Below, piece by piece: positions 22,792 through 64,000 of a stretch of DNA of 64,000 nucleotides; position 1 is the stretch's first letter, and the number at the start of each line of letters is the position of its first letter. A program made the translations under genes and the position numbers. The stretch covers positions 128,001 through 192,000 of the forward strand of contig JBKAGE010000035.1 of the NCBI GenBank assembly GCA_046290225.1. The letters run 5' to 3'. Origin of the DNA: Bradymonadia bacterium (lineage in GTDB: Bacteria; Myxococcota_A; Bradymonadia; UBA7976; UBA1532). The notes under the pieces were generated by a model. That model had not been told where the DNA came from and made no database searches. It worked only from the letters and a program-made list of their open reading frames with translations.

Positions 22792-22837
22792 ACGACTCAC
22801 GACGCTCACATTTTCGACCGCCTGACGTCAGATTTCT

Positions 22838-40021: not shown

Positions 40022-40053
40022 GTGTAGTCCAGGCACTCCCCGTCACTTACACT
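40022..40053 (+). promoter_or_regulatory. Conserved upstream motif, class A, member 1
   Basis: GTGTAGTC-N18-TACACT; same arrangement upstream of members 3-6. Confidence 0.55.
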
Positions 40054-40102: not shown

Positions 40103-43100
40103 ATGGCTCAGTCGCTGACACAGAAGCTCTTGCAGAGCGCCCTCGCCGCGGGGGTCATCACCCTTGCAGGTTTGAGCACCGCCTCTGCGAGCACGGGTTA
40201 CCACCACTGCGCCATCGATGATGCTGGCCAGCTCAAATGCTGGGGCTACAATGCCGGCGGCCAGCTCGGCCAGGGCAACACCACACAGTATGGTGATCAA
40301 GCCAACGAAGTCGCCAACATGTCGCCGGTGAACTTGGGCACCGACGCCCAAGGCCAACCGCTCACCGTACGCCAGATTGCCCATGGCTATCGGTTCTCCT
40401 GCGCCCTGCTCGAAGATGGTCGGTTGAAGTGCTGGGGCCTCGGCTCTTATGGCAGAACCGGTTACGGAGAGACGGCCACCCGTGGTGACAGCGCCAACGA
40501 GATGGGTGACAACCTGCCCTTCGTCGATCTCGGCACCGGCCGCACCGCGGTGCACATCATGAACACCCGGTACAGCGCCTGCGCGATTCTCGACGACGGC
40601 GGCGTCAAATGCTGGGGCCGCAACAACTATGGTCAGCTCGGTCAGGGCAACACCGTCAACCGAGGCGACGGCAACAACGAGATGGGTGAAAACCTCGCCT
40701 ACACCCCCCTTGGTACTGGACGCACCGCCGTGCAGATGTCCGGCGGGTACCAGCACAATTGCGCACTGCTCGACAACGGCGACGTCAAGTGCTGGGGCTG
40801 GGGTGGCTCGGGCATGTTGGGTCAGGGCAACTCGGCCAACATCGGCGACAGCGCCAACGAGCTGGGCGACAACCTGCAACCCATCGACCTGGGCACAAAC
40901 CGCACCGCCACCATGGTGAGTTCGGGCTATCAGTTCAACTGCGCGATCCTCGACAACGGTGGTGTCAAATGCTGGGGCTACAACGGCCACGGCGAGCTGG
41001 GCCAGGGCAACACCACCGCGCGCGGTGACAACGCCGGCGAGATGGGCGACAACCTCGCTTACACCAACCTCGGCACTGGTCGTACCGCCACCCACATCGC
41101 CTCGGGCAACAATCACACCTGCGCGATTCTCGACGACGGCGGTGTCAAGTGCTGGGGCTACAACCATCATGGCCAGTTGGGCCTCAACAACACCGCCTAC
41201 CGCGGCGATCATGCCAACGAGATGGGCGACAGCCTGCCCTACGTCAACCTCGGCGTTGGCCGCACGGCAGTGTCTCTCGGTGTGGGCTTCCACAGCACCT
41301 GCGCGATTCTGGACGACGACTCGGTAAAGTGCTGGGGCTACAACCCTTACGGCAACCTCGGCACCGGCAACACAGCCAGCTATGGCAACGCCAGCTTCAA
41401 CATGTCCAGCAACCCGGGGGTGAACCTTGGCGCCAACTTCGGCACCCCCATCGATCTGGACAACTCTGGCGGCATCACGTGCCCTGACACTGACAGTGAC
41501 GGCCTGTGCGACGAGGAAGACAACTGCCCACTGGCGGCAAACGTGAACCAGGCTGATACCGACGCTGATGGCCTGGGTGATGCGTGTGACGTGTGCGCCA
41601 ACGATGCGACGAACGACGCAGACGGTGATGGCATCTGCCAGGACGTGGACAACTGCATCACTGTGGCCAACGCCGACCAGACGGACAACAACGGTGACGG
41701 CTATGGCGATGCTTGCGTGAGCGTGAACGCCGACATCGACCCCACCGCTACCCTCGGCAACGACCTCGTCATCGGTGAGAACGCTGTCATTGGTGCGTTC
41801 TCTCGCATTGGCGATGGATCCACAGTGATGGGCAGCCTCGGCAGCAGCGTGGGCGTCGGCGCCGGCTCAGTCATCGGCGCAGGTGCAGACATCGAGAACG
41901 GCGTCAGCATCGGTGAAAACGTGGGCGTTGGTGCCAACACCACGATTGGTTTGATTGCCCGCATTGGCGACGGCGCCAGCATCGGTGCTGGTGTGAGCAT
42001 TGGTACTCAGAGTGACATCGGTGCTGGTGCAGTGATTCCCGACGGCGTGCAAATCGGCGAGATTTCGGGTGTGGGAGCCAACACTCAGTTGGGTGCCGGC
42101 TGTGTGTTGGGCAACAATGCTCGGTTCGGCGCCAATGGCTCCACTGGGACTGACTGCACCCTTGAATCGAATACCCAGGTAGGTGAAGGCTTCGTCTTCG
42201 GCAGCACGGTATACATCGAGTCGAACGCCACCATCGAGGCAGAGGCCGACTTTGGTGATGGTGTCCGCATCGGCGACTACGCTGTCGTGGGCCGAAACGC
42301 TCACCTTGCTGCAGGCACCATCCTCGCTTCTGGTGCAGAGCTGGGCGAGAACGCAACAGTAGGCGCTGACTCCGAGATTCGCGGCTCCCTGGGCAACGGC
42401 GTGACTCTGGGTGCTGACTGCTTCGTGGGCAACCAGAGCAGCCTCGCCGACAACTGCACCTTTGGAGATCGCGTCACCACCGGCATCTTCGTCACCCTCG
42501 GCGCTCGCTGCGATGTGGGTGAAGATTCAGCGATTTACGACGGCGTCACCCTCGGGGTCGACGGCAACATCGGTGCTCGCAGCACCGTGCTCTTCCGCGC
42601 GGCGATTGGTGACGAAGCCACGATTGGCACCGACACCATCATCGATGAGCAGGTCACCACGGGGAACCGCTTCACCCTCGGCAACAACAGCCGCCTGTGG
42701 CCCCGCTCCGGGTTCGGCAACGACGTCAGCATCGGCGCCAATGTGCTCATCCGCGACACCGCTGATGTCGGTCATGACGTGACCATTGAAGACGACGTCA
42801 CCATCTTCCCCGAGACCACCATTGGCGAAGGCACCACCATCCGTCAGGGCGTCGAAATCGGTGTGGCAGTGTGTGAGACCCAAGTTTGTGGTCAGGTCAC
42901 CATCGGCCAGTGCAACGACATCAACGCCGATGTGCAGCCTGGCAGCGACATGGGCGGCAACTGTGCCGACGGCAGCGAGGCTGCTCGTGCCGGGGCCTCC
43001 TGCCTCGACCTTCTGAACAACGGCGTCGGCGCTGACGGTGTGTACTGGGTCGACCCCGACGGCGACGGTGGTAACGCCGCCTTCGAGGCCTACTGCGACA

Positions 43101-43696
43101 TGACCACTGATGGTGGTGGTTGGACCCTGATCAGCAACCGCCGGGCCCATCAGAACAACACCGAAGCCTGCGGCAGCAACATTCAGCAGTTCTTCACCAA
43201 CGGCTGTGGCTCGGCGAATGCCATCGGTGCCAACGACAGCTACGCCCTCACTCAAGGGCAGCGCACCAGCATCGAACACTACGAGCTCATGAGCTTGCAG
43301 TACCTCAACGGCGCCCTCGACGCCGACGACGCCTTCATCGTCGAGAAGGCTGGCGGCTTTACTGATTTGTTCCCGAACACCAATGCCTCGACCAACATCC
43401 CCATGGTGCAGGTGTGCACCCTCGACCGCAGCACGTGCGACAGCAGCAATGTCTACTGGAAGTACATCGGCGACTACTGGTTCCACAGCTCCGAGTGTCA
43501 CTCGGGTTCCTCGGGCAGCACCAGCTACCGTGGCAACTATGGCCTCTGCCACAACGGCGCATCCAACAACGGCGCCGGCGCGAACTACTACTCCAACACC
43601 TTCAACGGCAACCGGGAGCACTACCAGGAGACGAAGCTGTGGGGTTACAACAGCCACGGCAGTGATGACTACCAGGAGCGCCTCTTCGTGCGCTGA
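40103..43696 (+). CDS. Array member 1: signal peptide - 7x RCC1-like repeats - TSP3 repeats - hexapeptide beta-helix - fibrinogen-like variable C-domain
   Basis: Seven KCWG repeats; DTDSDG.CD..DNC TSP3 units; ~400 aa of [IVL]G-x4 repeats; SC...[10 protein letters not shown]...[12 protein letters not shown]; ends RLFVR. Confidence 0.88.
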
Positions 43697-43790
43697 TGCC
43701 CCGCAGCCCACGCACCAGCACATCCCACCTGCACCAGGGCGCCCGGGCATCCAGTCATTCGAAAGAACTGATGTCTCTTTCTAGGGTACC

Positions 43791-43815
43791 CATTCATCAC
43801 ACATGCCGGTACACT
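43791..43815 (+). promoter_or_regulatory. Conserved upstream motif, class B, member 2
   Basis: CATTCATC-N9-GGTACACT; identical arrangement at 62676-62700. Confidence 0.5.
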
Positions 43816-43850
43816 CGCTGCATTCACCTGACCTGTGTGGAGTGTATGTC

Positions 43851-46583
43851 ATGGGTGTGAAGCTTCTCACCATCACCGGGGCCACCGCGCTGCTCTGTGC
43901 CAGCGCAGCTCAGGCGCAAACACCGTCGAGTTGTGCGAGCATCGTGCGCAACGGGCTGAGCAACGGCGACGGTGTGTACACCATCGACCCCGACGGGGCT
44001 GGTGGCAACGCGGCCTTCGATGTGTATTGCGACATGACCACCGACGGCGGTGGCTGGGCCATGCTCTACAACAGCGTCGGTGATCCTGGCGGCCAGACCA
44101 CGGCCTTCTGGCAGATCCCGTACGCAGAGCGCCTCAACGTGAAGGGCACCCCCAACCTCTCGAGCAACTTCTATGCGGGCTCTCTCTACATCTACGGTCG
44201 GGAGTACCGAGAGACCATCACCGATCTGAACGACACGACGGTGGAGGTGTACCGAGCCACAAGCCAGGGCATCAACACCTCCAACATGCACCTCACCAGC
44301 CCCGCCTTCGTCTCGGGCAACAGCAACTCCTACAGTTGTCAATTCGCCAGCGGGTGGGCGGCGTCCAACTACGACGCCGACGGCTATGGCGGGAACTGTG
44401 CGTCGGCCTACTCGAACGTCACCCAGCACTACTGCAGTTGCTGGTATTACAACCTCGGCTCAGATGCCGACGGCCCCCACTTTGATGGTGGCTGGGGCCC
44501 TCACTATCACTCGAGCACGGCGAGCTCCGACGGGCTGTCCACCGATGGCAGCGGATACTCTCGGATGAACGCCATCACCCGATGGACCCGTTGGGATGGC
44601 GGTGAAATCATCGTGCTTGATGCCGACAGTGATGGTGTGAACGACGACAACGACAACTGCCCGAACACCGCCAACGCTGATCAAGCAGATGGTGATGGTG
44701 ATGGGCAGGGTGATGTCTGTGATGCTTGCCCTGCTGATGCCACGAACGACGCAGACGGTGATGGTGTCTGCCAGGACGTCGACAACTGCCCCACCGTCGC
44801 CAACGGCGATCAGCTCGACGACAATGGTGATGGCTATGGCGACGCCTGCGTGAGCACTGCCGCCGACATCGCCGAAACCGCCACCCTCGGCAGCGACATC
44901 GTCGTCGGTGCTGATGCGATCATCGGGCCCTTCGCCCACATCGGCGACGGCGCCACGGTGAACGGCACCCTGGGCAGCAGCGTGCGCGTCGGCGCCGGCG
45001 CTGTCGTGGCTGCAGGTGCCAGCGTAGGCAACGGCGGCCGCCTCGGCGCCAACGTCGGTGTCGGCGCCAACTGCGCCCTCGGCGTGCTGGCGAACATCGG
45101 TGATGATGTGACGCTGGGCGCTGGCTGCTCTGTGGGCACCCGGGCGAGCATCGGCCCCCGGAGTAACCTCGGCGCCAACACTTCTGTGGGAGATCTCTCC
45201 ACCGTGGGCGAAGAGGCAAGCTTCGGCGACGGGGCCAGCGTGGGCAACAGCAGTAGCGTGGGCAACAGCGCCGAGCTGCTCGCCGGTGCCTCGGTGGGCT
45301 CGAACACCACCATCGGCCACACCCTGAGCCTCGGGGCCGGGGCTTCGGTGGCCACCAACTCCATCATCGGCGACGCAGCCATCATCGGCGCCAACGGCGT
45401 GGTGGGGAACTACGTCAACATCGGCGACAGCCTCGCCATGGGCGCCGACAGCGAGATCGCCGACGGCGCCAACCTCGGCCATGACGTCACCCTTGGCGCG
45501 AGCACCGAGGTCCGTGGCAGCCTCGGGGACAACGTCACCCTGGAAGACCGGGTGTTCATCGGGAACCAGAGCAGCGTCGGCGCCGACAGCCACCTGCACC
45601 ACGACGTGAGCCTCGGCATCTTCGTCAGCTTGGGCTCCAGCGTCATTGTCAACGACGACAGCGCCATCTACGACGGCGTCTCCATCGGCGCCAACAGCAC
45701 CCTTGGCCAGGCCACCAGCGTGCTGTTCCGCAGCACCATCGGTGCCCGAGCCAACATCGGTGACAGCGCCATTGTCGACGAGCAGATCACCATCGGCGAC
45801 GACTTCACCCTCGGCACCAACAGCCGGCTGTGGCCCCGCTCGACCTACGGCAGCACCGTCACCATCGGCAACAACGTGCTGATTCGCGACAGCGCCGATG
45901 TGGGCGACGACGTCACCATCGAGAACGATGCCATCATCTTCCCCGAGACCACCATTGGTCGGTCATCCATCATCCGCCAGGGCGTGGAGATCGGTGTAGC
46001 CACCTGCGAGACCCGCGTCTGCGGTCAGGTCACCATCGGTGACTGCACCGACATCGGCGCTGACATGCAGCCTGGCGCTGGGCAGCCGGGCACCTGCACA
46101 GTGCCTCCGGTGGTGTCTTCGGTGGAGCACTACGGCAGCGGGAACCGCGACGGGAACAACCTGCCCGCCACCAACCTCTTCGACGGCAACATCAACACCA
46201 AGAGTCGTTACCGCACTGGGGGCGATCGGTCCTACCGGATCGAGATCATCCTGCAGGGCCCGTCGACGCTCTCTGGTCTCGACATCTATGTGCCCCCAGG
46301 CCAGAACGCGGGCTACGCCGGCATCCAGATCTCCACCGACTCGGGGAACGGCTATGAGGTGCAGTACACCAACACCAACATGTTCGGCATCACCGGCCGC
46401 TTCGCAGGTGCAGAAGAGGTAGGCGGCCCGGGCTACGGCGCTGGTCATCAGGGCATTCAGGGCTGGTACAGCCACGCCTTCCCCCGCGTCGACGACGTCA
46501 CCCGCATTCAGATCATCACTGGCTGGAACGACGAAGCCAACGATGCTTGCTACTCCATGAACGAGATCGAACTCGTCGAGTAA
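43851..46583 (+). CDS. Array member 2: signal peptide - fibrinogen-like N-domain - TSP3 - hexapeptide beta-helix - discoidin/F5-8C-like C-domain
   Basis: AQA signal; SC...[10 protein letters not shown]...[11 protein letters not shown] at the N-terminus; same core as member 1; C-terminus NLFDGNINT...IEIIL...ISTDSG...EIELVE. Confidence 0.86.
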
Positions 46584-46622
46584 CCCGCCTCCGCGACCCC
46601 CCACCCCTCTCGAGCTTCTCAC

Positions 46623-46670
46623 CTACATCATACTTTTGTGTGGTCAGGCGTAAGTCTGAACACCTACAAT
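46623..46670 (+). promoter_or_regulatory. Conserved upstream motif, class A, member 3
   Basis: CTACA-N11-TGTGGTC-N19-TACAAT. Confidence 0.6.
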
Positions 46671-46735
46671 GCTTAGGTCATCGCACACTGACCCAAAACG
46701 TCATTGCCACACATCACCATCGACACGAGGCAACC

Positions 46736-49700
46736 ATGGATACTCGCCGTATCTTGAAACGCGCCCTCTTCGCCCTCATGGGCGCGGGATCGCTCACTCT
46801 GCTCGGGGCCTCGGTGGCCCAGGCCAACCACGACTACCACTCGTGTGCGCTCTTCGATAACGGGCAGATCAAGTGTTGGGGCTACAACTCCAATGGTCAG
46901 CTTGGTTACGGCAATACCAACTATCGAGGCGATACAGCCAACGAGATGGGCGACAACCTCCCCTTTGTCGACCTCGGTACTGGGCTCACGGTCGAGGAGG
47001 TTTCGTCAGGTTGGCACCATACATGCGCGCTGTTCACCGATGGGCGAGTCAAATGCTGGGGTTACAACAGCCACGCTGAGCTGGGCAGCGGAAACGTGGC
47101 CCACCTCGGTGACGGTGCCAGCGAGATGGGCGACAACCTGCCCTTCGTGAACTTCGGTACGGGTCGCACAGCCGTTTATGTGGACTCGGGTGTGCACCAC
47201 TCCTGCGCCATCCTCGACAACAACGATGTGAAGTGCTGGGGCTACAACGGCCATGGTGAGACAGGTGTGGGTTTCTCCGGGGGGTACATTGGTGATGCCA
47301 ATGGCGCCGAGATGGGCGACAACCGACCCCCTGTGAACCTCGGCAGCAACCTCACCGTAGCTCACGTCGATGCGGCCTACTTCCACAGCTGCGCCCTCTT
47401 CGACGATGGCCGCGTGAAGTGCTGGGGTCGCAACAACTACGGCCAGATCGGTTATGGCAGCAACACCATCATCGGCGACGTCGCAGGCGAGATGGGTGAC
47501 AACCTGCCCTTCGTCGATCTCGGCACCGGTCGAACAGCGAAGCATGTCGAGGGCGGCATCTACCACACCTGCGCACTGCTCGATAACGATCGCGTGAAGT
47601 GTTGGGGTCGCAACAACTACGGCAACCTTGGGTATGGCGACAACAACAACCGTGGCGACGGACCCAACGAGATGGGCGACAACTTGCCCTATGTCGATCT
47701 CGGCACCGACGGCCAGGGCAACCCGTTGCTGGTGGATCGTCTCTGGGTTGACGCCTATCACAACTGTGCGCAGCTCCAGAATGGTGGGGTGAAGTGTTGG
47801 GGCCATGGCACCCACGGCGCCCTGGGCCTTGGTGAGAGCAATCACCGCGGTGATGCTGCCAACGAGATGGGCAACAACCTGCCCTATGTCGATTTGGGCA
47901 CGGGCCGCAGTGTCGTCGATATGACGCTTGGCTACCTCTTCAGCTGTGCACAGCTCGACGATGGTGGGGTGAAGTGTTGGGGCTACAACGCCCATGGCCA
48001 GTTGGGTCAAGGGAACACGACTCAACGAGGCGACAACGCCGGCGAGATGGGCGACAACCTCGCCTACACCCCACTTGGCAGCGTTTCTTCTGTGGTGGAG
48101 CTGTCTTCACCGGCATCCAACCGGATCACCGACGACGATGGTGATGGCGTCGATGATGGAGTGGACAACTGTCTTCTCGTGGCCAACGCCGATCAAACAG
48201 ACACTGATGGCGATGGCGCCGGTGATGCGTGTGATGCCTGCGCGAACGACGCGACGAACGACGCTGACGGCGATGGCATCTGTCAGGACGTGGACAACTG
48301 CATCACTGTGGCCAACGCAGACCAGACGGACAACAACGGTGATGGCTACGGCGACGCTTGTGTGAGCGTGAACGCCGACATCGATCCCACGGCTACGCTG
48401 GGCGCTGACCTCGTGATTGGTGAGAACGCAGTGATTGGTGCCTTCGCCCGCGTGGACGACGGCGCCACGGTGATGGGCACTCTCGGCAGTAGCGTCGGCA
48501 TTGGTGCTAGCTCGGTCGTAGCCGCTGGAGCCAACCTCGCGAACGGCGTCAGCGTGGGCGAGAACGTGGGCATCGGGGCTGGTACCAGCATTGGTGTGAT
48601 TGCCCGCATCGGCGACGGGGCCAGCATCGGCGCCAACGTCACCATCGGCACCCAGGGTGAAATCGGCGCTGGCGCTGTCATCCCTGACGGCGTGCAAATC
48701 GGTGAGATTTCGGGCGTGGGTGACAACACTCAGCTCGGCGCCGGCTGTGTGCTGGGCAACAACGCCAAGATGGGGTCGAACGGCTCCACGGGTACGGACT
48801 GCACCCTTGAGTCAAACACCCGCGTGGGTGACGACTTCGTCTTCGGGACTACGGTTTACATCGAGTCGAACTCCACCATCGAGCCCGAGGCTGACTTCGG
48901 CAACGGCGTGCGCATTGGTGACTACGCTGTCGTGGGCCGAAACGCTCACCTTGCTGCAGGCACCACCCTCGCATCTGGCGCGGAACTCGGTGAGAACGCC
49001 TCTGTGGGTGCTGATTCCGAGATTCGCGGTGCCCTGGGCAACGGCGTGACTCTGGGCGCTGACTGCTTCGTGGGCAACCAGAGCAGCCTCGCTGACAACT
49101 GCACCTTTGGGGACCGCGTCACCACGGGCATCTTCGTATCCCTCGGCGCTCGCTGTGACGTGGGCGAGGATTCGGCGATTTACGACGGTGTGACCCTCGG
49201 TGTGGACAACACCGTGGGCGCCCGCAGCACCATTCTGTTCCGGACCACCATCGGCGACACCGCCAACATCGGGACCGACACCATCATCGACGAGCAGAAC
49301 ACCATCGGGCACCGGTTCACCCTGGGCAACAACAGCCGTCTGTGGCCCCGCTCTGGCTTTGGCAACGACGTCAGCGTCGGCGCCAACGTGCTCATTCGCG
49401 ACACTGCTGACGTGGGCGACGAGGTCACCATCGAGAACGACGTCACCATCTTCCCCGAGACCACCATTGGTCAGGAGACCACCATCCGCCAGGGTGTGGA
49501 GCTCGGCGTAGCCATCTGCGCCACTCAGCGCTGTGGTCAGGTCAACATTGGCGAGTGTCTCGACATCAACGCCGATATGGGCCCTCTGAGCGACATGCCC
49601 GGCAGCTGCGCCGATGGCAGCGAGGCTGCCCAGGCGGGCCAGAGCTGTGCTGACCTGCTCGCCAACGGCGTCACCACCACGGGCACTTACTGGATCGACC

Positions 49701-50218
49701 CTGATGATGGTGGCCCCATCGCGCCGTTCCAGGCCTACTGCGACATGACCACCGACGGCGGCGGCTGGACCATGATCGGGAACGGCACGTGGTACAGCAG
49801 CACCGCCAACTATGTGGCTCCGGGCCAGGGGAATGTTCAGCTGGCCACCACCACCATCGACGCGCTGCGGACCAACTCCGAGGACCTGTTCCGCGTGGGC
49901 CAGGGGAACACCCGCATGTTCATCCGGGACTCGGGCGCTCTCATCGAGCAGGGCCTGCACTACTGGCGCTCCACCGCCAACGATCTGGAATGCTCCACGG
50001 GCTACGACGCGGTCACCTCGAACACGATGACCGACGTGCCAAACAACCGCCTCACTTGCGATGCGTTCGGTGTGGGCTCACACACGTGTGGCTCGGCGAA
50101 CGGCTGGATCCTGATCCACGTGGTGGATGCCTTTAACTGGAACGGTACTCACCCTTGTAGCTTCGGCGTGGCCTACTACCCCACCAACCAGGCCCTCAAC
50201 ACACTCTGGTTGCGCTGA
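46736..50218 (+). CDS. Array member 3: signal peptide - 7x RCC1-like - TSP3 - hexapeptide beta-helix - fibrinogen-like variable C-domain
   Basis: GAGG RBS; seven KCWG repeats; conserved core; [12 protein letters not shown]; ends TLWLR. Confidence 0.88.
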
Positions 50219-50291
50219 CGGCACACACCTCCTGGTCAACGCCCGCCTGATAATCCCCCCTCTTTTCAGCCTGATTCAGCGCCATTTAGGC

Positions 50292-50339
50292 CTACATCGT
50301 GATTTGGTGTAGTCCATGGTGTGTCAATTCACCTACAAT
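50292..50339 (+). promoter_or_regulatory. Conserved upstream motif, class A, member 4
   Basis: CTACA-N11-TGTAGTC-N19-TACAAT. Confidence 0.62.
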
Positions 50340-50377
50340 GACTCCGCTTGCATACTCCCGATGCTCACGGAGGACCG

Positions 50378-53300: not shown

Positions 53301-54118
53301 ACTGCCTGGACCTGCTCAACAACGGGAACGTGGACACTGACGGTGTGTACTGGATTGACCCCGACGGCAACGGTGGGGATGTACCCTTCCAGGCCTACTG
53401 CGACATGACCAGCAGCGGTGGTGGTTGGACCCTGGTGCTCAACCTCGACACCTCTGACGGCCACGTCATGTGGTGGCACAACAACCTCTGGACCAACGGC
53501 ACCCTGCACAACAGCGCCTCGCCCGACCTCAGCGGCGACTACAAAGGCCTCGGCTGGAACGAGATTCCCGCTCAGGAGTTCCTCCTCCTCGTGCACGAGC
53601 AGGGCAACTACAAGGGCTGGAAGTCCTTCAACAGCGCCAACGCCGGCAACACCATGAACACCTGGCTCAACAGCGGCGACAACGTCCCCATCTCCACCTT
53701 CGGCGCCACCGACAGCTTCCTCGCCGGTGACCTCTGGAACGGTGAGCACCTCGTCCGCGACTCAAACCAGCTCTGGATCAACCAGAACGACAACTTCAAC
53801 GGCTACTGCAACACCAACGACTGGGATCGCATCTGCTCCGACACCTGCAAGGTCGGCGGCAACGACGGCGGTGGCCTCGGTAACTGCCACGACTGCACTC
53901 ATGGCCCCCAGTGGCGCACCACCTCGGAGGCCCAGGCTGGCTGGCACAACTGGACCAGCAACTCAGCCTGCTACGCCGGCACGCCCCACAACGGCCTCGG
54001 CCACTACGGCACCGACACTGCCTACCCCGCCACCTGCAACAACAGCGGCGCCAACAACGCCGCTTCGTGGTCCTGCGCCAATGGCATCAACTACGACTAC
54101 GCCATCTTCGTCCGCTGA
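50378..54118 (+). CDS. Array member 4: signal peptide - 7x RCC1-like - TSP3 - hexapeptide beta-helix - Cys-rich fibrinogen-like variable C-domain
   Basis: GGAGG RBS; seven KCWG repeats; conserved core; [12 protein letters not shown]; ends AIFVR. Confidence 0.88.
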
Positions 54119-54208
54119 GCCCTCCAGGGTGATTTCACCCTGTGAGATACCTGCCGGATAACCGCTCGCGCCCCACCCGTTTCCGCCTGAGATCACAGCC
54201 CCAGATGC

Positions 54209-54256
54209 GTACACTGTGATTTTGTGTAGTCCCCAGTGTATCCATTCACCTACAAT
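54209..54256 (+). promoter_or_regulatory. Conserved upstream motif, class A, member 5
   Basis: GTACA-N11-TGTAGTC-N19-TACAAT. Confidence 0.62.
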
Positions 54257-54294
54257 GGCTCCGTTTGCATACTCCCAATGCTCTCGGAGGGCCG

Positions 54295-57200
54295 ATGTCT
54301 CGCTCCAACTTCTTTCGCCGCACACTCCATGGCTTGCTCGGGGCTGGTGCGCTGACGCTGCTGGCCGCTTCTTCGGCCCAGGCGACTCATGACTACCAAA
54401 CCTGTGCGCTCTTCGACGACGGGCAGGTGAAGTGCTGGGGCTACAACAGCCACGGCAACCTCGGCCTCGGCGACACCAACCATCGCGGTGACTCTCCTGG
54501 CGAGATGGGCAACAGCCTGCCCTACCTCGACCTCGGTGAGCCTGCGGTAGAGGTCCACACGAACTATCTCGTCGGCTGCGCCACATTGCAGAGCGGTGCT
54601 GTGAAGTGCTGGGGCTACAACGCCCACGGTCAGCTGCTCAAAGGCAACACCAGCTCCCTCGGTGACGGGCCCAACGAGATGGGCAACAACCTCACGCCCA
54701 TCGACTTGGGTACGGGGCGTACTTCGGCATACCTCGACATGGGCATGTATCACATCTGTTCCGTGCTCGATAACGGCCGCATCAAGTGTTGGGGTTACAA
54801 CTACTATGGCCAGCTGGGCTACGGGGACACCAACTACCGTGGCGACCAGGCCAACGAGAGTGGTGACAATCTGCCCTATGTGGATCTCGGGACTGAGAAC
54901 GGCCAGCCACTTCTGGCTGCTCAGGTGGGGGCAAACTACATCAGCACCTGCGCCATCCTCACCGACGGCCGCGTGAAGTGCTGGGGCTACAACAACTATG
55001 GTGAGCTGGGCCAGGGTCACACCGCCCATCGTGGTGATCATGGCAACGAGATGGGGAACAACCTGCCCTTCACCAACCTGGGCACTGGGCGGACCGCCAA
55101 GTACATCGACGGTGGCATCCACACCATGTGCGCCATCCTCGATAACGACCGCCTCAAGTGCTGGGGCTATGGTGGTTACGGCACCCTCGGCCAGGGCAAC
55201 ACCACCCACTACGGCGACAACGAGACCGGCGACAGCATCCCCTATGTGCCTCTTGGCACCGACGGCCAGGGCAACCCCCTCACTGTGAAGAACTTCTGGA
55301 CAGGCGCATATCACTACTGCGCCAAGCTCGAGACCGACGGCGTGAAGTGCTGGGGCACCAACTCAGGCGGCGCCCTGGGCTATGGCCACAGCACCCGCCT
55401 CGGCGACAACCCTGGTGAGATGGGCGACAGCCTGCCCTATGTGGATTTTGGCACTGACGATCAGGGCCAGCCTCTCGTGGTGGCCGACATGGACCTGGGC
55501 CACTACTTCGGCTGCGCATTGTTCACCAATGGCACCCAGAAATGCTGGGGCTACGCGCTCTATGGTCAGCTTGGCACGGGTGACACCACCCACCGCGGTG
55601 ACAACGCCAACGAGATGGGGAACAACCTGCCCTACCTCGACCTCGGAGACGGCACTGTGGTGGCGCTCTCCGAGCCCACGCCTCTGCTCATCGTCGACGA
55701 CGACGGCGACAACATCGACGATGCCATCGACAACTGCCCCTTCCTCGCCAACGCAGATCAGGCCGATACCGATGGTGACGGCATGGGTGACGCGTGTGAT
55801 GCATGTGCGAACGACGCGACAAACGACGCTGACGGCGATGGCATCTGCCAGGATGTGGACAACTGCATCACCGTCGCGAATGCAGACCAGACGGACAACA
55901 ACGGTGATGGCTACGGCGACGCTTGCGTGAGCGTGAACGCCGACATCGACCCCACCGCTACCCTCGGCAACGACCTCGTCATCGGTGAGAACGCTGTCAT
56001 CGGCTCATTCGCCAATGTCGGCGACGGCGCCACAGTGATGGGTGACCTTGGCAGCAGCGCCAGCGTAGGCGCAGGCTCTGTCGTGGCCGCGGGTGCCAGC
56101 CTCGCCAACGGCGTTCGTGTGGGTGACAACGTGGGCATCGGGGCTGGTACCAGCATTGGTGTCATCGCTCGCATCGGTGACGGGGCCAGCATCGGCGCCA
56201 ACGTCACCATCGGTACTCAGGGTGAAATCGGCGCTGGTGCTGTCATCCCTGACGGCGTCCAGATTGGTGAGATTTCGGGTGTGGGTGACAACACTCAGCT
56301 CGGTGCTGGCTGTGTCCTCGGCAACAACGCCAAGATGGGCGCCAACGGCTCCACGGGGACCGACTGCACCCTCGAGTCGAACACTCGCGTGGGCGATGAC
56401 TTCGTCTTTGGGAGCACGGTGCACATCGAGTCGAACTCCACCATCGAGCCCGAGGCCGACTTCGGCAACGGTGTCCGCATTGGTGACTACGCTGTCGTGG
56501 GCCGCAACGCTCACCTCGCAGCGGGCACCATCCTCGCTTCTGGTGCGGAGCTTGGTGAAGACGCCGCTGTGGGCGCTGACTCCGAGATTCGCGGTGCCCT
56601 GGGCAATGGCGTGACCCTGGGCGCTGACTGCTTCGTGGGCAACCAGAGCAGCCTCGCCGACAACTGCACCTTTGGTGATCGCGTCACCACTGGCATCTTC
56701 GTCACCCTGGGCGCTCGCTGTGATGTGGGTGAAGACTCCGCCATCTATGACGGTGTGACTCTCGGCGTGGACAACACCGTGGGCGCCCGCAGCACCATTC
56801 TGTTCCGGACCACCATCGGCGACACCGCCAACATCGGGACCAACACCATCATCGATGAGCAGAACACCATCGGGAACCGCTTCACCCTGGGCAACAACAG
56901 CCGCCTCTGGCCCCGCTCTGGCTTTGGCAACGACGTCAGCGTCGGTGCCAACGTGCTGATTCGCGACACCGCTGACGTGGGTGACGAGGTCACCATCGAA
57001 GACGATGTCACCATCTTCCCCGAGACCACCATCGGCAACGACGTCACAATCCGTCAGGGTGTGGAGATCGGCGTAGCTGTCTGTGAGACTCAGGTCTGTG
57101 GGCAGGTCAACATCGGCGAGTGTCTCGACATCAACGCCGACATGAACCCGGGTGAGGCCCTCGCCGCCGATTGTATCGACGGTGGCGATCCCGGCAGCGC

Positions 57201-57813
57201 CGGCTTGAGCTGCTCGGCCATTCTCGCCAGCGGCGCCACCGACAGTGGTACATACTGGCTCGATCCTGATGGTGACGGTGGCCTTGCGCCCTTCCAGGCA
57301 TACTGTGACATGACCACGGATGGTGGTGGCTGGACCCTGCTCGCGCGCAACAACCAGACCACCACCTTCACCAACTTCCACCGCACCTGGGCGGACTACC
57401 GTGATGGCTTTGGTGACGCAGCCAACAACAACCTCGGCTGGATCGGCAATGATCGGATCCATGCACTCACCACCAACGGAAACGGTGAGATGCACATTCG
57501 TACGAACTCACTGACTCATGTATACGCCAACTTTGTGGTACAAAATGAGGCCAACAACTATCGAATGACGTTCAGCAACACTGCACAGTCAAACGATGGC
57601 AACCACTTCAGCTACCACAACAACCGTAACTTTACCACTTACGATGATGACAACGACAGTTATGGTGGCAACTGTGCCAGCGTCTACAAGGCAGGCTGGT
57701 GGTATGGCTCGTGTTACAACATGACCATTGCGGGCAGTAACAACAACCATGTGTACTGGCGCAGTGACGCAGGCCTTTACTACGTCAACGACATCGCCAT
57801 CTGGATCCGCTGA
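54295..57813 (+). CDS. Array member 5: signal peptide - 7x RCC1-like - TSP3 - hexapeptide beta-helix - canonical fibrinogen C-terminal (FReD) domain
   Basis: GGAGG RBS; seven KCWG repeats; FReD motifs F.RTWADYRDGFG, WIGNDRIHALT, FTTYDDDND....C......GWWY..C; ends AIWIR. Confidence 0.9.
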   Translation: MSRSNFFRRTLHGLLGAGALTLLAASSAQATHDYQTCALFDDGQVKCWGYNSHGNLGLGDTNHRGDSPGEMGNSLPYLDLGEPAVEVHTNYLVGCATLQSGAVKCWGYNAHGQLLKGNTSSLGDGPNEMGNNLTPIDLGTGRTSAYLDMGMYHICSVLDNGRIKCWGYNYYGQLGYGDTNYRGDQANESGDNLPYVDLGTENGQPLLAAQVGANYISTCAILTDGRVKCWGYNNYGELGQGHTAHRGDHGNEMGNNLPFTNLGTGRTAKYIDGGIHTMCAILDNDRLKCWGYGGYGTLGQGNTTHYGDNETGDSIPYVPLGTDGQGNPLTVKNFWTGAYHYCAKLETDGVKCWGTNSGGALGYGHSTRLGDNPGEMGDSLPYVDFGTDDQGQPLVVADMDLGHYFGCALFTNGTQKCWGYALYGQLGTGDTTHRGDNANEMGNNLPYLDLGDGTVVALSEPTPLLIVDDDGDNIDDAIDNCPFLANADQADTDGDGMGDACDACANDATNDADGDGICQDVDNCITVANADQTDNNGDGYGDACVSVNADIDPTATLGNDLVIGENAVIGSFANVGDGATVMGDLGSSASVGAGSVVAAGASLANGVRVGDNVGIGAGTSIGVIARIGDGASIGANVTIGTQGEIGAGAVIPDGVQIGEISGVGDNTQLGAGCVLGNNAKMGANGSTGTDCTLESNTRVGDDFVFGSTVHIESNSTIEPEADFGNGVRIGDYAVVGRNAHLAAGTILASGAELGEDAAVGADSEIRGALGNGVTLGADCFVGNQSSLADNCTFGDRVTTGIFVTLGARCDVGEDSAIYDGVTLGVDNTVGARSTILFRTTIGDTANIGTNTIIDEQNTIGNRFTLGNNSRLWPRSGFGNDVSVGANVLIRDTADVGDEVTIEDDVTIFPETTIGNDVTIRQGVEIGVAVCETQVCGQVNIGECLDINADMNPGEALAADCIDGGDPGSAGLSCSAILASGATDSGTYWLDPDGDGGLAPFQAYCDMTTDGGGWTLLARNNQTTTFTNFHRTWADYRDGFGDAANNNLGWIGNDRIHALTTNGNGEMHIRTNSLTHVYANFVVQNEANNYRMTFSNTAQSNDGNHFSYHNNRNFTTYDDDNDSYGGNCASVYKAGWWYGSCYNMTIAGSNNNHVYWRSDAGLYYVNDIAIWIR

Positions 57814-57936
57814 GCTCTCTCCCCCATTTGGGCCATCGCATTGCGCTTGAGCCCCCTACATGATTTGCCTGCGACAACGGTCCACGTGCCGAATCCCTAT
57901 GGGGTCCAGCTCACCACAGTCGCCAGGCATCACTCC

Positions 57937-59406
57937 ATGACCCTTCCTCCTCCGCTCTACCCTCTCCGCGTCAACGCACTCAACGACTCACCGTTACGCA
58001 GCGATGGGCGCTATGTGTTGTATTGGATGATCGCCGCCCGGCGCCCCCGATATAACTTCGCCCTGGAGCGCGCTCTCGAGCTGGGGCGGCAGCTCGATCG
58101 GCCCGTACTGGTCTTCGAGCCACTGCGCATCGGATATCGCTGGGCCTCTGATCGCATACATCGATATGTCCTCGATGGCATGAAGGCCAATCACACCGCC
58201 TTCATGGCTGCTGGTGTGCGCCATTACCCCTACGTCGAACCCGAAGCGGGTGCAGGCAAAGGGTTGCTCGAAGCCCTTGCAGAGCACGCGTGCGCCGTCG
58301 TCACCGACGAGTTCCCATGCTTCTTCCTCCCCCGAATGGTCCGCGCAGCAGGTGAGCGTCTGTCAGTGTACGCCGAGCAGGTCGACGGCAATGGCCTCAT
58401 GCCCCTGAGAGCCGCCGAGCGAGTGTTCACGACGGCGGCAAGCTTCCGCCGCCATCTGCACAAGACACTGCCCGATCACCTGGGACATTGGCCCATGGCT
58501 GATCCGCTCGTCGATCTCGCGCAACCCATGGCCGAGATCCCCGAGCAGGTGAGTCATCAGTGGCCCATGGCCGATCTTGCCGATGTAGAGGCTCTGATCG
58601 AGCGCTTGCCCATCGATCACACAGTGGCTCCGGTGGCTGAGCGTGGAGGCTTCGTCGAAGGCACCCGGGCCATGAGCCGGTTCATCGAGCAACGCCTCTC
58701 GCGCTACGGCGACGATCGCAACCACCCCGACGAAGCAGGGGCGAGCCAGCTGTCGGGCTGGCTGCACTTTGGCCATGTGTCGGCCCATGAGGTCGTGAAG
58801 CGGATCTTCGAGGCGGAAGACTGGTCCCCGGCCCGCCTGGGCCCCAAGCCCACGGGCAAACGAGAGGGCTGGTGGGGCCTGAGCGCACCTGCCGAAGCCT
58901 TCATGGACGAGATCGTCACCTGGCGGGAGGTGGGCTTCACCTTCACCTTCCAGCGGCCCGACGATTACGATCAGTTCGAGTCGCTCCCGGCCTGGGCGCT
59001 GACCACCCTTGCCGAGCACGCTGACGACGAGCGCCCCCACCTCTACACGCTCGAGCAGCTCGACAGCGCCCGCACTCATGACGAGATCTGGAATGCTGCT
59101 CAACGACAACTCAAGCGCGACGGACGCATCCACAACTACCTGCGCATGCTCTGGGGCAAGAAGATCCTGCAGTGGAGCCCAACGCCTCAAATGGCTCTCG
59201 AGCGCCTCATCGAATTGAACAATCGCTACGCCATCGATGGCCGTGATCCCAACAGCTACAGCGGCATCTTTTGGGTGCTGGGCCGCTTCGATCGCGCATG
59301 GGGACCAGTACGGCCCATCTTCGGCAAGGTGCGCTACATGACCTCGGAGAGCACAGCGAAGAAAGTGCGTCTCAAGAAGTACCTGCACACCTACCGCCGC
59401 CTATAG
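57937..59406 (+). CDS. phrB: Deoxyribodipyrimidine photolyase, class II CPD type
   Basis: YVLYWM....R...N.AL, DRNHP....SQLS.WLHFG.VS, THDEIWNAAQ, HNYLRMLWGKKILQW, YAIDGRDPNSY.GI.W, RPIFGKVRYM. Confidence 0.92.
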   Translation: MTLPPPLYPLRVNALNDSPLRSDGRYVLYWMIAARRPRYNFALERALELGRQLDRPVLVFEPLRIGYRWASDRIHRYVLDGMKANHTAFMAAGVRHYPYVEPEAGAGKGLLEALAEHACAVVTDEFPCFFLPRMVRAAGERLSVYAEQVDGNGLMPLRAAERVFTTAASFRRHLHKTLPDHLGHWPMADPLVDLAQPMAEIPEQVSHQWPMADLADVEALIERLPIDHTVAPVAERGGFVEGTRAMSRFIEQRLSRYGDDRNHPDEAGASQLSGWLHFGHVSAHEVVKRIFEAEDWSPARLGPKPTGKREGWWGLSAPAEAFMDEIVTWREVGFTFTFQRPDDYDQFESLPAWALTTLAEHADDERPHLYTLEQLDSARTHDEIWNAAQRQLKRDGRIHNYLRMLWGKKILQWSPTPQMALERLIELNNRYAIDGRDPNSYSGIFWVLGRFDRAWGPVRPIFGKVRYMTSESTAKKVRLKKYLHTYRRL

Positions 59407-59427
59407 CCTCACTTGTCCCTTCAAATC

Positions 59428-59474
59428 CTACCTTCTACATTTCTGTAGTCTTATGTGTGTCATGGCAGTACCCT
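59428..59474 (+). promoter_or_regulatory. Conserved upstream motif, class A, member 6
   Basis: CTACC-N11-TGTAGTC-N18-TACCCT. Confidence 0.5.
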
Positions 59475-59505
59475 ATGACAGTGTTCAGCCCATAGGGAAT
59501 CGACG

Positions 59506-62500
59506 ATGACTCGACGCCTTGTCTTTCTGACCTCCGCCTTCTCACTGGCGCTCGCCGGTGCAGCTTCGGCGCAGACCATCAACAACATGCCTGGTGGTGA
59601 CGCTGGCCCTGACCTTTCAGGTGAAGGTCTCATCCAGTGTTATGGATGGCACAACAACGGTGTGTCGCCCTCACCCGATCTGGATGCGGTGAGAGCAGCA
59701 TGTGGTGACGCCGTGCGCATCACCTTCGCAGGCTACCGTCATGATGGCACCTTCGTCCGCCACGACATGAGCTTGCAGCAGTCCTTCGTCAACTACCTCG
59801 GCAACGGCAGTCTCTTCTTCCAGCAGTTCGACACCAGCAACAATTACAGCTGGCACAAGGACAACAACTGGCTCCTGCTCGTCGACTACAACAACGCGTG
59901 GTCTGATCCCGGCCGTCTCTGGGAGCCCAGCTTCAACGGCGGCACCAGCGCCACCAACGGCCACGTGCTCTCACAGCTCGGCAACAACGCCCACGATCAG
60001 CACAGCCACCTGGGCGATCGCTACTTCATCTACAAGGGCCTCTCGAACTCAACAGCCCGCATCGACAACATGCCTGGCGGTTATGCTGGCCCCGACCTCT
60101 CCGCTGAAGGTCGCACGCAGTGCTACGGCTGGCTCAACAACGGCAACACCCCACCGCCTGACATCGCAGCCATCCGCACGGCCTGCGGCGACGCTGAGGG
60201 CATCACCTTCGCAGGTTACCGCCACGACGGCACCCTTGTACGCCACGACATGAGCCTGCGGCAGCCGTTCATCAACTACCTCGGCAATGGCCGGCTCACG
60301 TTCACCGACTTCGACCACAGCAGCCAGTACTCCTGGGAGAAGTCCGACAACTGGATCCTGCTCACCGACTACGCCAACGGCTGGTCGGACCCTGGCCGTC
60401 TCTGGGAGCCCGGGATCAACGGTCAGTCCGGCGCCACCGGGGGCCACGTGCTCTCGCAGCTCGGCAACAACGCCCACGATCAGCACAGCCACACCGGCGA
60501 CAGCTACTTCATCTACAAGGTGGTGGTCGATCCTGACGGTGACGGCATCAATGAAGGCGACAACTGCCCCGATGTGGCCAACGCCGATCAGGCCGATGTG
60601 GATGGTGATGGTGTCGGTGACGCCTGTGATGTCTGCCCTGCAGACGCCACGAACGACGAAGATGGCGATGGCATCTGTCAGGACGTGGACAACTGCCCCA
60701 CTGTGAGCAATGGCGATCAGGCAGATGACAATGGTGACGGTTATGGCGACGCCTGTGTGAGCCCTGATGCTCAGATCCCGGAGACGGCCACCCTGGGCAA
60801 CGACATTGTCATTGGTCCTGCTGCGGTCATCGGCACCTACGCTCGGATCGGAGACGGGGCCACGGTGAACGGCTCTGTGGGCAACAGTGTGGTGGTGGGC
60901 GCAGGCTCTGTGGTGCCCGCAGGTGCCACGGTGGAGAACGCCGTGGTCATCGGGGCCAACGTGGGTCTGGGCACCGGCTGTACCGTGGGCATCCTCGCCA
61001 ACATCGGTGACAACGTCACCGCCGGTACGAACTGCGCCTTCGGGAGCAAGGCTGAGGTGGGTGCCGGAAGCACCTTCGGCAACAACACCAGTGTGGGCAC
61101 CCTCGCCATCGTCGGTGATGGTTCCAGCTTCGCCGATGGCACCAGCCTCGGGAACAACAGCCAGGTCGGCGCCAGCGCTGACCTGCTCGCTGGTTCCAGC
61201 ATCGCCAGCAACACGCGTGTGGGTCACACCCTCAGCCTCGGTGCCGGCGCCATCATCGAAAGCAACACCGAGATCGGCGACGAAGCCATCATCGGTGCGA
61301 ACGGCATCGTGCGCAGCTACGTGACCATCGGGAACAGCCTGGCTATGGGCGCTGGTGCTGAGTTTGCCTCTGGTGCTGCCGCCGGTGATGACGCCACCCT
61401 GGGCGAGAACACCGAGGTCCGCGGCTCACTGGGCAACAACGTCACCCTCGAAGACCGAGTGTTCATCGGGAACCAAAGCAGCGTCGGCGACAACACGCAC
61501 ATGCACCACGACACCACGCTGGGCATCTTCGCCACCGTGGAGTCGGGCTGCACCATTCACGACGACTCTGCTCTATACGACGGCGTCACTCTCGGGGCCG
61601 ACAGCACCGTGGGTGAGCGCACCACCATCTTGTTCCGCGCCAACGTCGGCGCTCGGGCCAGCATCGGTGACGACACCATCATCGACGAGCAGAACACCAT
61701 CGGCACCGACCTGACGCTCGGCAACAACAGCCGCCTGTGGCCCCGAAGCACCTATGGCAACAACGTCAACGTTGGCAACAACGTCCTCATCCGTGACACC
61801 GCAGACATCGGTGACGACGTCATCATCGAAGATGATGTGATCATCTTCCCCGAGACCAGCATCGGGAACGAGAGCGTCATTCGCCAGGGCGTGGAGCTCG
61901 GCGTGGCCACATGTGCCGATCGGGTGTGTGGGCAGGTGACCATCGGCGCATGCCAGGAGGTCAACGCCGACATGGATCCCGCAGCGTTGATGGACGGTGA
62001 CTGCGTCAGCGGCGATGCCCCGGAGAACGCGGGGCAGGATTGTGGGGCACTCCTCGCCGAAGGGGTCAACGTCGACGGCACCTACTGGATTGACCCGGAT
62101 GGAGATGGCGGCATCGACCCGTTCCAGGCGTACTGCGACATGACGAGCGCTGGCGGTGGGTGGACCCTCATCGTGTTCAACAACACGAACAACAACAGCG
62201 CCCTGTGGAACCAGAACTGGGCGACCTACAAGGCAGGCTTTGGCAACACCGCGAACCGTGACAACGGCTGGATTGGAAACGACAAGCTGCATGCGCTGAC
62301 GGCGAACGGCGCCAACGACATGCAGGTCCGCATCAACGACGACCTCAACACCAGCTCGGTGTACGGCAACTTCAACGTCGAGAACGAGGCCAACAACTAT
62401 CGCATGACTGTGGGCGCGGTGATTTCGGGGCCGACGTACGGCAACCTCGCCTACCACAGCGGCTCGATGTTCAGTACCTACGACCGGGACAATGACAGTC

Positions 62501-62634
62501 ACGGCAGCACGTGCGGCACCTTCTATGACAACGGCTGGTGGTTCCACAGCTGCTGGACCATCAACCCCATCTACGGGGATGGTCGACCTTACTGGGGCAG
62601 CTACTACAACTCCATCACCCTCTGGCTCCGCTGA
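59506..62634 (+). CDS. Array member 6: signal peptide - two tandem 161-aa novel domains - TSP3 - hexapeptide beta-helix - canonical FReD domain
   Basis: Duplicated NMPGG.AGPDLS.EG..QCYGW...YFIYK unit; conserved core; [36 protein letters not shown]; ends TLWLR. Confidence 0.88.
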
Positions 62635-62675
62635 GACAACACACAACACCCTCCCTGTAAAAAAACCCCCTTCCT

Positions 62676-62700
62676 CATTCATCCCACACTCAGGTACACT
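62676..62700 (+). promoter_or_regulatory. Conserved upstream motif, class B, member 7
   Basis: CATTCATC-N9-GGTACACT; same as 43791-43815. Confidence 0.5.
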
Positions 62701-62735
62701 GTACGGGCCTTATTTACCCTTCCGGAGTATGTGTG

Positions 62736-64000
62736 ATGGGGTTCAAGCTGATTTCACTCGTAGCGGCCACGGGTGCCATGTGGTCCGTGAGCGCCCAGGC
62801 GCAGACGCCGACGAGCTGCGCGAGCATTCTGAACAATGGGCTGAGCAACGGCGACGGTGTGTACACCATCGACCCCGACGGAAACGGTGCCAACGCCCCC
62901 TTCAGCGTGTGGTGTGACATGACCACCGACGGCGGTGGCTGGACGGTCATCGCCAACAACGACAACGGTGACGTGGAGCCCAGCGGCTGTTGGGCCCGCA
63001 TCGGCAGCCACTCCACCTTCGTTTGCGGCAACATCTCTCAGGGTGAGGACTTCGTCGTTCCCGCATATGGCATGGTCTTCGACGAGCTCGTCTGGGCCAC
63101 CTACGACAACGACGACTTCTCCGACATCAGCGCATACCAGTACATGCTCTGGAACAACGACCAGACCATCCCCAACAACAACGGTCGCTGGTCGCTCAGT
63201 CCCAACAGCAACACTCAGAACCTCAACGGCTACGCTGCTCAGAGCAAGATCTACTGCAACTACAACGGCACCAGCAGCCTGCAGTCCGTGGGCAACGAGA
63301 TCCCCCAGGGGGGTGACTACGGCAACAACCCCGTCACCATCTTCGACGAGATCAACAACTTCGACAATCCCGGCCACATGAGCTTCACCGAGCATGACCA
63401 GCACGGCGGTGGCAGCAGCATGAACGGCCTCGACGACTTCCAGGACGGCCACGGCTGTGGTGACAACTGGCAGCCCAAGGCTGATCGCGGCAAGTCCAGC
63501 TACATCATGATCCGCGGTGAGGATCCTCAGGTGCTGGTGTTCGACGCTGACAGTGATGGGGTGAACGACGACGTCGACAACTGCCCCAACAATGCCAACG
63601 CTGATCAGGCCGATGGTGATGGCGACGGCAGTGGTGATGTCTGCGACGCCTGCCCTGCAGACGCCACGAACGATGCTGATGGTGATGGTGTCTGCCAGGA
63701 CGTGGACAACTGCCCCACTGTCGCCAACGCTGATCAGGCAGATGACAACGGCGACGGCTACGGTGACGCCTGTGTGAGCACCGCCGCCAACATCGACCCC
63801 ACAGCCACCCTGGGCAACGACATCATCATTGGCGCCGCAGCAAACGTCGGCTCTTACGCCCGCATCGCGGACGGGGCGACGGTGAACGGGTCCGTGGGCA
63901 ACAGTGTGGTGGTGGGCGCAGGCTCTGTGGTGCCCGCAGGTGCCACGGTGGAGAACGCCGTGGTCATCGGGGCCAACGTGGGCCTGGGCACCGGCTGTAC
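62736..64000 (+). CDS. Array member 7 (3'-truncated by window): signal peptide - fibrinogen-like N-domain - TSP3 - start of hexapeptide beta-helix
   Basis: Absent from the ORF track because it runs off the window. ATG 62736 follows GGAG and reads [49 protein letters not shown]...[12 protein letters not shown]...[14 protein letters not shown]...; paralog of member 2. Confidence 0.88.
   Translation, partial: MGFKLISLVAATGAMWSVSAQAQTPTSCASILNNGLSNGDGVYTIDPDGNGANAPFSVWCDMTTDGGGWTVIANNDNGDVEPSGCWARIGSHSTFVCGNISQGEDFVVPAYGMVFDELVWATYDNDDFSDISAYQYMLWNNDQTIPNNNGRWSLSPNSNTQNLNGYAAQSKIYCNYNGTSSLQSVGNEIPQGGDYGNNPVTIFDEINNFDNPGHMSFTEHDQHGGGSSMNGLDDFQDGHGCGDNWQPKADRGKSSYIMIRGEDPQVLVFDADSDGVNDDVDNCPNNANADQADGDGDGSGDVCDACPADATNDADGDGVCQDVDNCPTVANADQADDNGDGYGDACVSTAANIDPTATLGNDIIIGAAANVGSYARIADGATVNGSVGNSVVVGAGSVVPAGATVENAVVIGANVGLGTGC

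Follow-up and report, generated by a model that had tools for sequence, protein, structure and literature searches.

A tandem array of putatively secreted hexapeptide beta-helix proteins with exchangeable heads in an uncultured Myxococcota bacterium: a candidate portable display scaffold

What is gained by a row of long secreted proteins that keep one central rod and exchange the domains at its ends? The question is raised by positions 40103..64000 of the window, the 64,000-nucleotide stretch analysed here, which corresponds to C35:128001-192000 on contig C35 of a Bradymonadia genome in 83 contigs (G000, the source genome). This region holds seven co-oriented open reading frames (ORFs), each of which matched both TSP_3 and Hexapep in a profile scan (7/7). 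It is proposed, with moderate confidence, that the TSP3 repeats and the hexapeptide beta-helix together form a portable scaffold, without enzymatic function, on which recognition domains are displayed outside the cell; these domains are termed N-heads and C-heads here according to their end of the chain. The features concerned are as follows (aa, amino acids).

40023..40053, forward strand: promoter-like motif TGT[AG]G[TC]-N19/20-TACA[CAG]T ahead of member 1, with further copies at 46639, 50308 and 54225
40103..43696, forward strand: member 1, 1197 aa, with signal peptide, RCC1 propeller, TSP3, beta-helix and GGGWT-type divergent C-head
40190..41470, forward strand: RCC1-type seven-bladed propeller of member 1 (UVR8 match, E 3e-23)
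41483..41713, forward strand: TSP3 calcium-binding-type repeats of member 1, with the conserved NGDGYGDAC link at the end
41714..42961, forward strand: hexapeptide beta-helix stalk of member 1, with 63 units, conserved corner ladder and Cys-paired cap
43851..46583, forward strand: member 2, 910 aa, with GGGWT N-head, TSP3, stalk and weak F5/8-like C-head
46736..50218, forward strand: member 3, 1160 aa, with RCC1, TSP3, stalk and GGGWT-type C-head
50378..54118, forward strand: member 4, 1246 aa, with RCC1, TSP3, stalk and GGGWT-type C-head
54295..57813, forward strand: member 5, 1172 aa, with RCC1, TSP3, stalk and complete ficolin-type FReD C-head
57841..59406, forward strand: class II photolyase-like gene, not of the family, between members 5 and 6 (TIGR00591, E 2e-103, under cut-off)
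59506..62634, forward strand: member 6, 1042 aa, with duplicated 160-aa N-head, TSP3, stalk and complete FReD C-head
62736..64000, forward strand: initial portion of member 7 (982 aa when complete in the genome), with GGGWT N-head and COLFI-like C-head
C35:193805-200279, beyond the window: members 8 and 9

A first-pass annotation, made from the letters alone, had reported seven co-oriented paralogs, six of them complete with 910-1,246 aa, that share a signal peptide, TSP3 and hexapeptide repeats. All of this is confirmed: the likely starts give 1197, 910, 1160, 1246, 1172 and 1042 aa for the complete members, and an AxA-type signal peptide can be read at the N-terminus of every array member. 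The picture of a tandem array of at least seven genes holds, with the photolyase-like gene as an interruption between members 5 and 6; in the genome member 7 is complete, and the array amounts to nine genes over 32 kb, two of which lie beyond the window. The proteins are rich in cysteine, with 20-39 residues in each of eight members counted. The array is not a collapsed repeat: distinct members have no stretch of identical DNA longer than 71 bp in common (3 rows that were overlaps of adjacent ORFs excluded), and the four-fold sites of the stalks differ by 0.18-0.58 (22 pairs). The promoter-like motif stands upstream of 13 of 52 family ORFs, four of them in the window, with 21 sites genome-wide, where chance alone would give about 14. 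It may act as a promoter, and its recurrence is partly due to shared ancestry.

The constant part of these proteins is the stalk, which consists of 63 hexapeptide units with two 4-residue breaks, PF00132 matching at E<=2e-36 in the six complete members. The rod of about 22 turns and about 10 nm envisaged at first is therefore corrected to 21 turns by the unit parse; the length of about 10 nm stands on an assumed rise of 0.48 nm per turn. A model of member 5 by AlphaFold2, from a 28-row alignment, reached a mean predicted local distance difference test (pLDDT) of 83, in which the seven-bladed propeller scored 90-97, the helix mostly 85-95 with a 6-residue strand period, and the FReD was partly confident. 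The predicted template modelling score (pTM) of 0.48 means that the arrangement of the domains is not fixed by the model. The left-handedness of the helix is taken from the hexapeptide family, not from the model coordinates. When the whole model was searched by Foldseek, only RCC1-type propellers were listed, so that the stalk was not matched on its own. Antifreeze-type Thr arrays were also considered for the stalk and rejected by inspection, as only one residue per strand points outward.

The hexapeptide helix is a fold known from cytoplasmic enzymes, and many proteins with the stalk are named LpxD, acetyltransferase or 'isoleucine patch' in the source databases (NCBI/JGI). Together with the hexapeptide matches to LpxD, LpxA and NeuD models, these names would suit extracytoplasmic acyltransferases or gamma-carbonic anhydrases whose heads choose the substrate. 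The left-handed beta-helix (LbH) enzymes (LpxD, LpxA, GlmU and NeuO; PF00132) indeed share the repeat pattern and the three units per turn. However, the scores for LpxD (132-147 bits against a cut-off of 207) and for LpxA, NeuD and GlmU are far under the cut-offs, ordinary LpxD and LpxA genes are present separately, and no His is conserved in the stalk, the most frequent one occurring in 25% of 52 rows in the source genome and 45% of 91 in the second genome described below. Moreover, the stalk has 21 turns, 2-3 times the length of the enzymes' helix, with neither their loops nor their helical domain, and it comes with a signal peptide, disulfide-type caps, fused heads and tens of copies. There is also no supply of acyl-CoA outside the cell. 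The stalk proteins are not LpxD-type enzymes, and an enzymatic role of any such kind is very improbable.

The domains carried by the stalk are diverse. The assignment of N-heads made from the letters is borne out by profile matches, with RCC1 in members 1, 3, 4 and 5 and a fibrinogen-like head in members 2 and 7. The propeller of the member 5 model matches UVR8/RCC1, and BLIP-II is absent among the 31 solved matches of the RCC1 propeller. As for the C-heads, the canonical FReD claimed for members 5 and 6 corresponds to full Fibrinogen_C matches (E 7e-40 and 2e-40), while in members 1, 3 and 4, called divergent fibrinogen-like, only the first ~50 aa of Fibrinogen_C match. The FReD of member 5 finds ficolin-3 as its best solved match (E 7e-33) and retains the ficolin-type calcium and ligand-site motifs; within the array, a complete domain with calcium loop and ligand-site motif is confined to members 5 and 6, and in 3 of 32 scanned pieces the whole fibrinogen C domain is covered at E<1e-30. 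The discoidin-like C-head of member 2 finds an F5/8 type C match that is weak (E 3e-4, under the cut-off). The duplicated head of member 6, which had been called novel, has no Pfam family match. Its model is confident (pLDDT 90.5); the best comparison with TLDc domains gives a middling Z of 6.3 (root mean square deviation 3.7, 128 residues aligned), intelectin gives Z 3.6, and Foldseek returns E>=0.11. A search of the Atlas led from this head to unnamed clusters only, and from the stalk to nothing. A protein 92% identical to the head lies on a 2486-bp contig (L045) labelled Phycisphaerales, probably as a result of mis-binning or of recent transfer. The head is not unique to member 6, as will be seen.

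In the source genome, the stalk family comprises 45 ORFs at E<=1e-30, equal to 185 kb or 2.2% of the genome, besides about 9 partial or contig-end pieces. The N-heads of the 40 full-stalk members include 22 RCC1 and 7 GGGWT, the others being PKD, Ig, L-lectin or TSP3 arrays, and some members have none. A C-head is present in 29 of the 40, in 21 clusters, and the other 11 end at the Cys cap. Several giant members place many RCC1 propellers before the stalk (L021:1450-17058, 5203 aa; L024:1438-13332, 3965 aa; L015:1968-12578, 3537 aa). Of the GGGWT ORFs in the genome, 26/31 belong to the stalk family. Stalks with 84-93% identity can bear C-heads whose alignable part is limited to the initial ~60 residues and stops at the GGGWT motif, and the same type of C-head occurs on stalks only 39-53% identical. 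Taking members by contig and position, the C-head of member 1 is 64% identical to that of C41_93962 (stalks 52%), that of member 3 is common to C81_69934 with 62% identity (stalks 39%), and the propeller of member 4 is 78% identical to that of C83_10159 (stalks 54%). In a quick tree, from which 6 divergent stalks were left out, head types are scattered across two well-supported stalk clades. The repertoire has been built by duplication and by recombination, frequently at a point immediately behind the GGGWT motif.

Assembly chimeras or decayed repeats could in principle mimic such head swapping, as the genome is in 83 contigs with several members at contig ends. This is scarcely credible, since no stops occur in 44/44 stalk matches and the same architectures are found in independent ENA/Logan assemblies, where 13 metagenomic proteins, one partial, match at 42-50%. 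Stalks that are 84-93% identical in protein differ at 0.18-0.47 of four-fold sites, which indicates purifying selection. No compared region falls below a four-fold difference of 0.15 and no exact repeat exceeds 71 bp, so that shuffling over evolutionary time, rather than phase variation or misassembly, accounts for the exchange.

Genome searches with the stalk revealed the family in a second genus, assigned to the Myxococcota by the source names of proteins of this type. A profile search of 1.84 billion proteins was dominated by RCC1 because whole proteins were aligned; 0 of its 139 new matches contain the stalk. No match to the member 1 stalk was found in 40 relatives, and a 400-genome sample of the phylum, in which only 4-6 candidates were scored per genome, gave 1 other matching genome with one query and 4 with another. 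In G105, one of these matching genomes and a member of another family (Myxococcota genus g106), at least 103 stalk matches were obtained with 150 of 222 candidates scored, and 81 in G249 of the same genus. Within that family matches occur in 5/49 genomes and 2/22 genera, the second genus weakly; the stalk expansions are genus-restricted. Of 97 members recovered from 73 G105 loci, 91 have a helix of ~235 residues close behind the signal peptide and 3 have the helix last. Their 91 heads form 65 clusters, and 57 have a Pfam match: 28 fibrinogen/COLFI, 8 glycine-rich/gp38, 6 Ig, 5 TLDc, 3 FG-GAP, 2 RCC1, and one each of LamG, CBM96, EGF, PMP and CARDB. The stalk types of the two genomes align from the first Cys, and the C-head of member 1 is 54% identical to a G105 head. 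The second genus expanded a shorter version of the stalk independently of the source genome. The claim of a two-headed design is accordingly restricted: heads are shuffled at both ends, yet two heads are optional and not the rule, as 11/40 lack a C-head, some lack an N-head and the second expansion is mostly one-headed. Outside the Myxococcota, including Pelagicoccus, Competibacter and Contendobacter, the TSP3 link and a helix of 120-330 residues end secreted S8 peptidase, FG-GAP, PKD, LRR and Ig proteins. The position of the module in the chain varies (first, middle or last), and the helix seems to be more than a spacer, namely a portable module for display. A pattern scan of genome contigs gave 3 loci (1 real, 2 weak), and scans of metagenome and viral contigs gave none. 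In G228 (L057:1354-2235), TSP3 and helix occur alone behind a lipoprotein-like signal, ASGC, which we take to be a lipoprotein-type motif and thus possibly a membrane-anchored stalk. Proteins P0049-P0071, Noviherbaspirillum among them, have 1120-1270 aa, no signal peptide and hexapeptide-like solenoids of ~850 residues, and form a separate family.

How such a rod is held may be reflected in one of its corners. In every third hexapeptide one corner is conserved, with an entropy of 1.54 bits against 2.11 and 2.24 on the other corners (52 rows; p 1e-5, with alignment columns that are not independent). In the source genome this ladder runs across both breaks (Y, N, N, N, Y, F-NQ, IF, YD, LFR, DEQ, R-WP, L-RD, YP) with a period of 18 residues and is aromatic in 36/40 stalks by permutation test. 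In G105 it is basic, with Arg 79-99%, Tyr 90% and Pro 99% every ~18 residues at a median identity of 34%. A basic ladder is found in 2/40 stalks of the source genome, 36/91 of G105, 11/20 distant proteins and 0/3 in G228/G005, and by permutation test LpxD and LpxA of the source genome have none. An edge that stays constant while the heads differ entirely must have a common binding target, either other stalks or a shared partner, and the ladder corner is probably a docking or assembly edge, to judge from this conservation. An extension, unlikely but worth stating, is that the ladder is a lineage-specific assembly code shared by 50-100 paralogs, whose mixed oligomers or surface lattice would show heads in combinations, as a recognition coat that assembles itself from an enzyme fold and has a pool of tips in common with the fibres described below.

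The ladder might instead mark a three-fold axis, the proteins being free soluble trimeric lectins ('bacterial ficolins') whose released two-headed rods cross-link or agglutinate prey or particles. Solved hexapeptide relatives are mostly enzymes, and hexapeptide enzymes are mostly trimeric. In addition, the FReD heads are closest to ficolins, many members of the source genome are two-headed and no anchor was found in the family. A stalk trimer may thus form, and NeuO is a trimeric example (PMC3046976). It does not follow from the fold alone, however, because in the account of NeuO drawn on here contacts are made mainly via a loop and the C-terminal end, with few from the helix rungs (PMC3046976), and the family stalks lack those parts. 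Counter-ions would also be needed if an Arg ladder lay on a three-fold axis, one-headed and headless members cannot bridge, and tips are exchanged with carriers whose Bdellovibrio counterparts are surface-located. A three-copy complex prediction that covered residues 85-416 of a stalk returned a score of 0.00, at odds with the calibration, and counts neither way. Soluble trimeric lectins are, on this evidence, rather unlikely. Ficolins, tachylectin-5 and FIBCD1 do resemble the family in bearing a FReD on a stalk, complete in members 5 and 6; they differ in having a collagen stalk instead of a beta-helix, and in most of the bacterial members the domain is reduced to its GGGWT sub-domain (NF040941), with unrelated sequence behind it.

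Some of the tips recur on fibres of another build. Mosaic adhesive trimer (MAT) fibres of Bdellovibrio (PMC10769870; NF053851) likewise form a large paralogous repertoire with a constant part and exchanged adhesin-type tips, and such mosaic paralogs are what is found in the helix family. The head of member 6 recurs in 10 tail-fibre-like proteins, where it forms the C-terminal tip or sub-tip, and 2 of 4 such carriers tested match the MAT N-domain weakly. Two helix proteins of G105 each have a tip in common with the MAT-like gene beside them (79% over 212 aa and 73% over 270 aa), and in total 15/152 heads match one of 32 MAT-like carriers over at least 120 aa. MAT-like genes number 84 in G105 and 11 in the source genome; the 84 places in G105, with MAT-like N-domain and variable tips, stand alongside ~100 helix proteins. 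They are also the commonest neighbours of the helix genes in G105, with 11 of them within 509 kb where a density of 84 in 7.2 Mb predicts ~6, a weak excess. With identities of 73-79% between the tips of adjacent genes, the helix and the MAT-like carrier are interchangeable as display scaffolds, and the tips are shared by descent. The verdict 'analogous, not homologous' therefore holds for the scaffold and fails for the tips. As for the scaffold, no match to the MAT N-domain NF053851 at E<=0.001 was found in 17 scanned proteins, including all 9 array members, no Pfam family of phage-type fibre shaft or S74 chaperone occurs in the array members, and heads match no annotated tail-fibre PHROG. The helix proteins are not MAT members. 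They also differ in carrying heads at either or both ends and in their single-chain hexapeptide helix of ~10 nm with TSP3, against ~55 nm reported for Bd3182; fibrinogen-type tips are not mentioned in the main text of PMC10769870, supplements aside. That paper's Discussion places MAT fibres on the surface, and the constant MAT end is proposed there to bind the predator's own surface. Most simply, a module carrying the same tips is another display or anchoring scaffold.

The copy number (45 ORFs, 2.2% of the genome; ~100 in G105), the genus-restricted expansions, the lineage-specific ladder and the headless members would equally suit a variable coat, in which stalks pack as a surface layer and heads vary to evade phages or grazers or for kin recognition rather than for prey capture. 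We consider this quite improbable: the heads come from lectin and adhesin folds and are kept intact, many genes have a promoter-like motif of their own, and the four-fold differences and short exact repeats already given show no sign of rapid switching.

Under the display-scaffold reading, the AxA-type signal peptide would direct the protein to the periplasm, where the many cysteines would pair and the TSP3 loops would bind calcium, as is known for that family. Type II secretion may carry it outward, GspD being over the cut-off in the source genome. Twin-arginine export as a rule was rejected, since just 9 of the first 24 proteins listed for that genome have RR/RK/KR close to the start. The helix would then form the stiff rod of the model, and its conserved corner would dock on a partner common to the paralogs, either other stalks, giving a trimer or lattice, or a polymer on the surface of the same cell. 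The lectin- and adhesin-type heads, some of recognised fold, would project outward and bind prey, particles or other cells, while duplication, recombination and trade of tips with MAT-like fibres have built the repertoire over evolutionary time. The repertoire is probably for sticking to prey or particles, and a surface location, specific ligands and predation would fit with it. Several observations weigh against this reading. No membrane anchor or sorting tail was found in the family, and no dedicated partner gene recurs among 342 neighbouring ORFs in the source genome; a single shared partner is in any case unlikely, given the different chemistry of the ladder from one lineage to another. 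In most divergent C-heads no binding site can be recognised, and 34/91 G105 heads have no Pfam match. Furthermore, 5/8 MAT-like neighbours in G105 match NF053851, all far under the cut-off, and no head finds its best match among the 11 MAT-like proteins of the source genome itself.

The claim that no family of this architecture had been described has held up. None was found in full-text literature searches, which cover papers outside subscription, the searched terms in the available text of PMC9957290 and PMC12923769 led to no such description, and the proteins belong neither to MAT fibres nor to LbH enzymes. Myxococcus Kil/Tad pilus tips are, in the part of PMC12075869 consulted, similar in their variable exposed domains, contact with diverse prey and Myxococcota host. 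The present proteins are not pilins, no pilus genes lie beside the array, and the diversity resides within single chains. If the reading is right, uncultured Myxococcota would possess a second, unrelated scaffold for the mosaic-adhesin strategy of Bdellovibrio, with tips moving between both, and an extracellular structural use of the hexapeptide helix, in genes hidden under LpxD labels in databases. The roughly 200 natural stalk-head fusions would constitute a library of candidate bacterial lectins, the rod of 5-10 nm could serve as a rigid display element in protein design, and the ladder offers a clear test of how such proteins stay on the cell.

Some features around the array should also be recorded. 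A homologue 56% identical to the photolyase-like gene adjoins a helix gene in G105 (L096), a single case that may be chance. Further upstream in the window are two ORFs without Pfam matches, of 2976 aa (5970-14900, reverse strand) and 1234 aa (19105-22809, reverse strand), possibly not on the coding strand, an IS605-type TnpB gene (14955-16112, forward strand) and a gene for an immune-inhibitor-A-like M6 metallopeptidase (16196-19123, reverse strand). Just upstream of the array, a secreted protein of 446 aa (38638-39978, forward strand) matches no Pfam or NCBIfam family and has a tail resembling MYXO-CTERM. Directly 3' of member 9 lie an AAA/M41-type ATPase gene and a 1149-aa ORF of no assigned function (L001:9846-15704).

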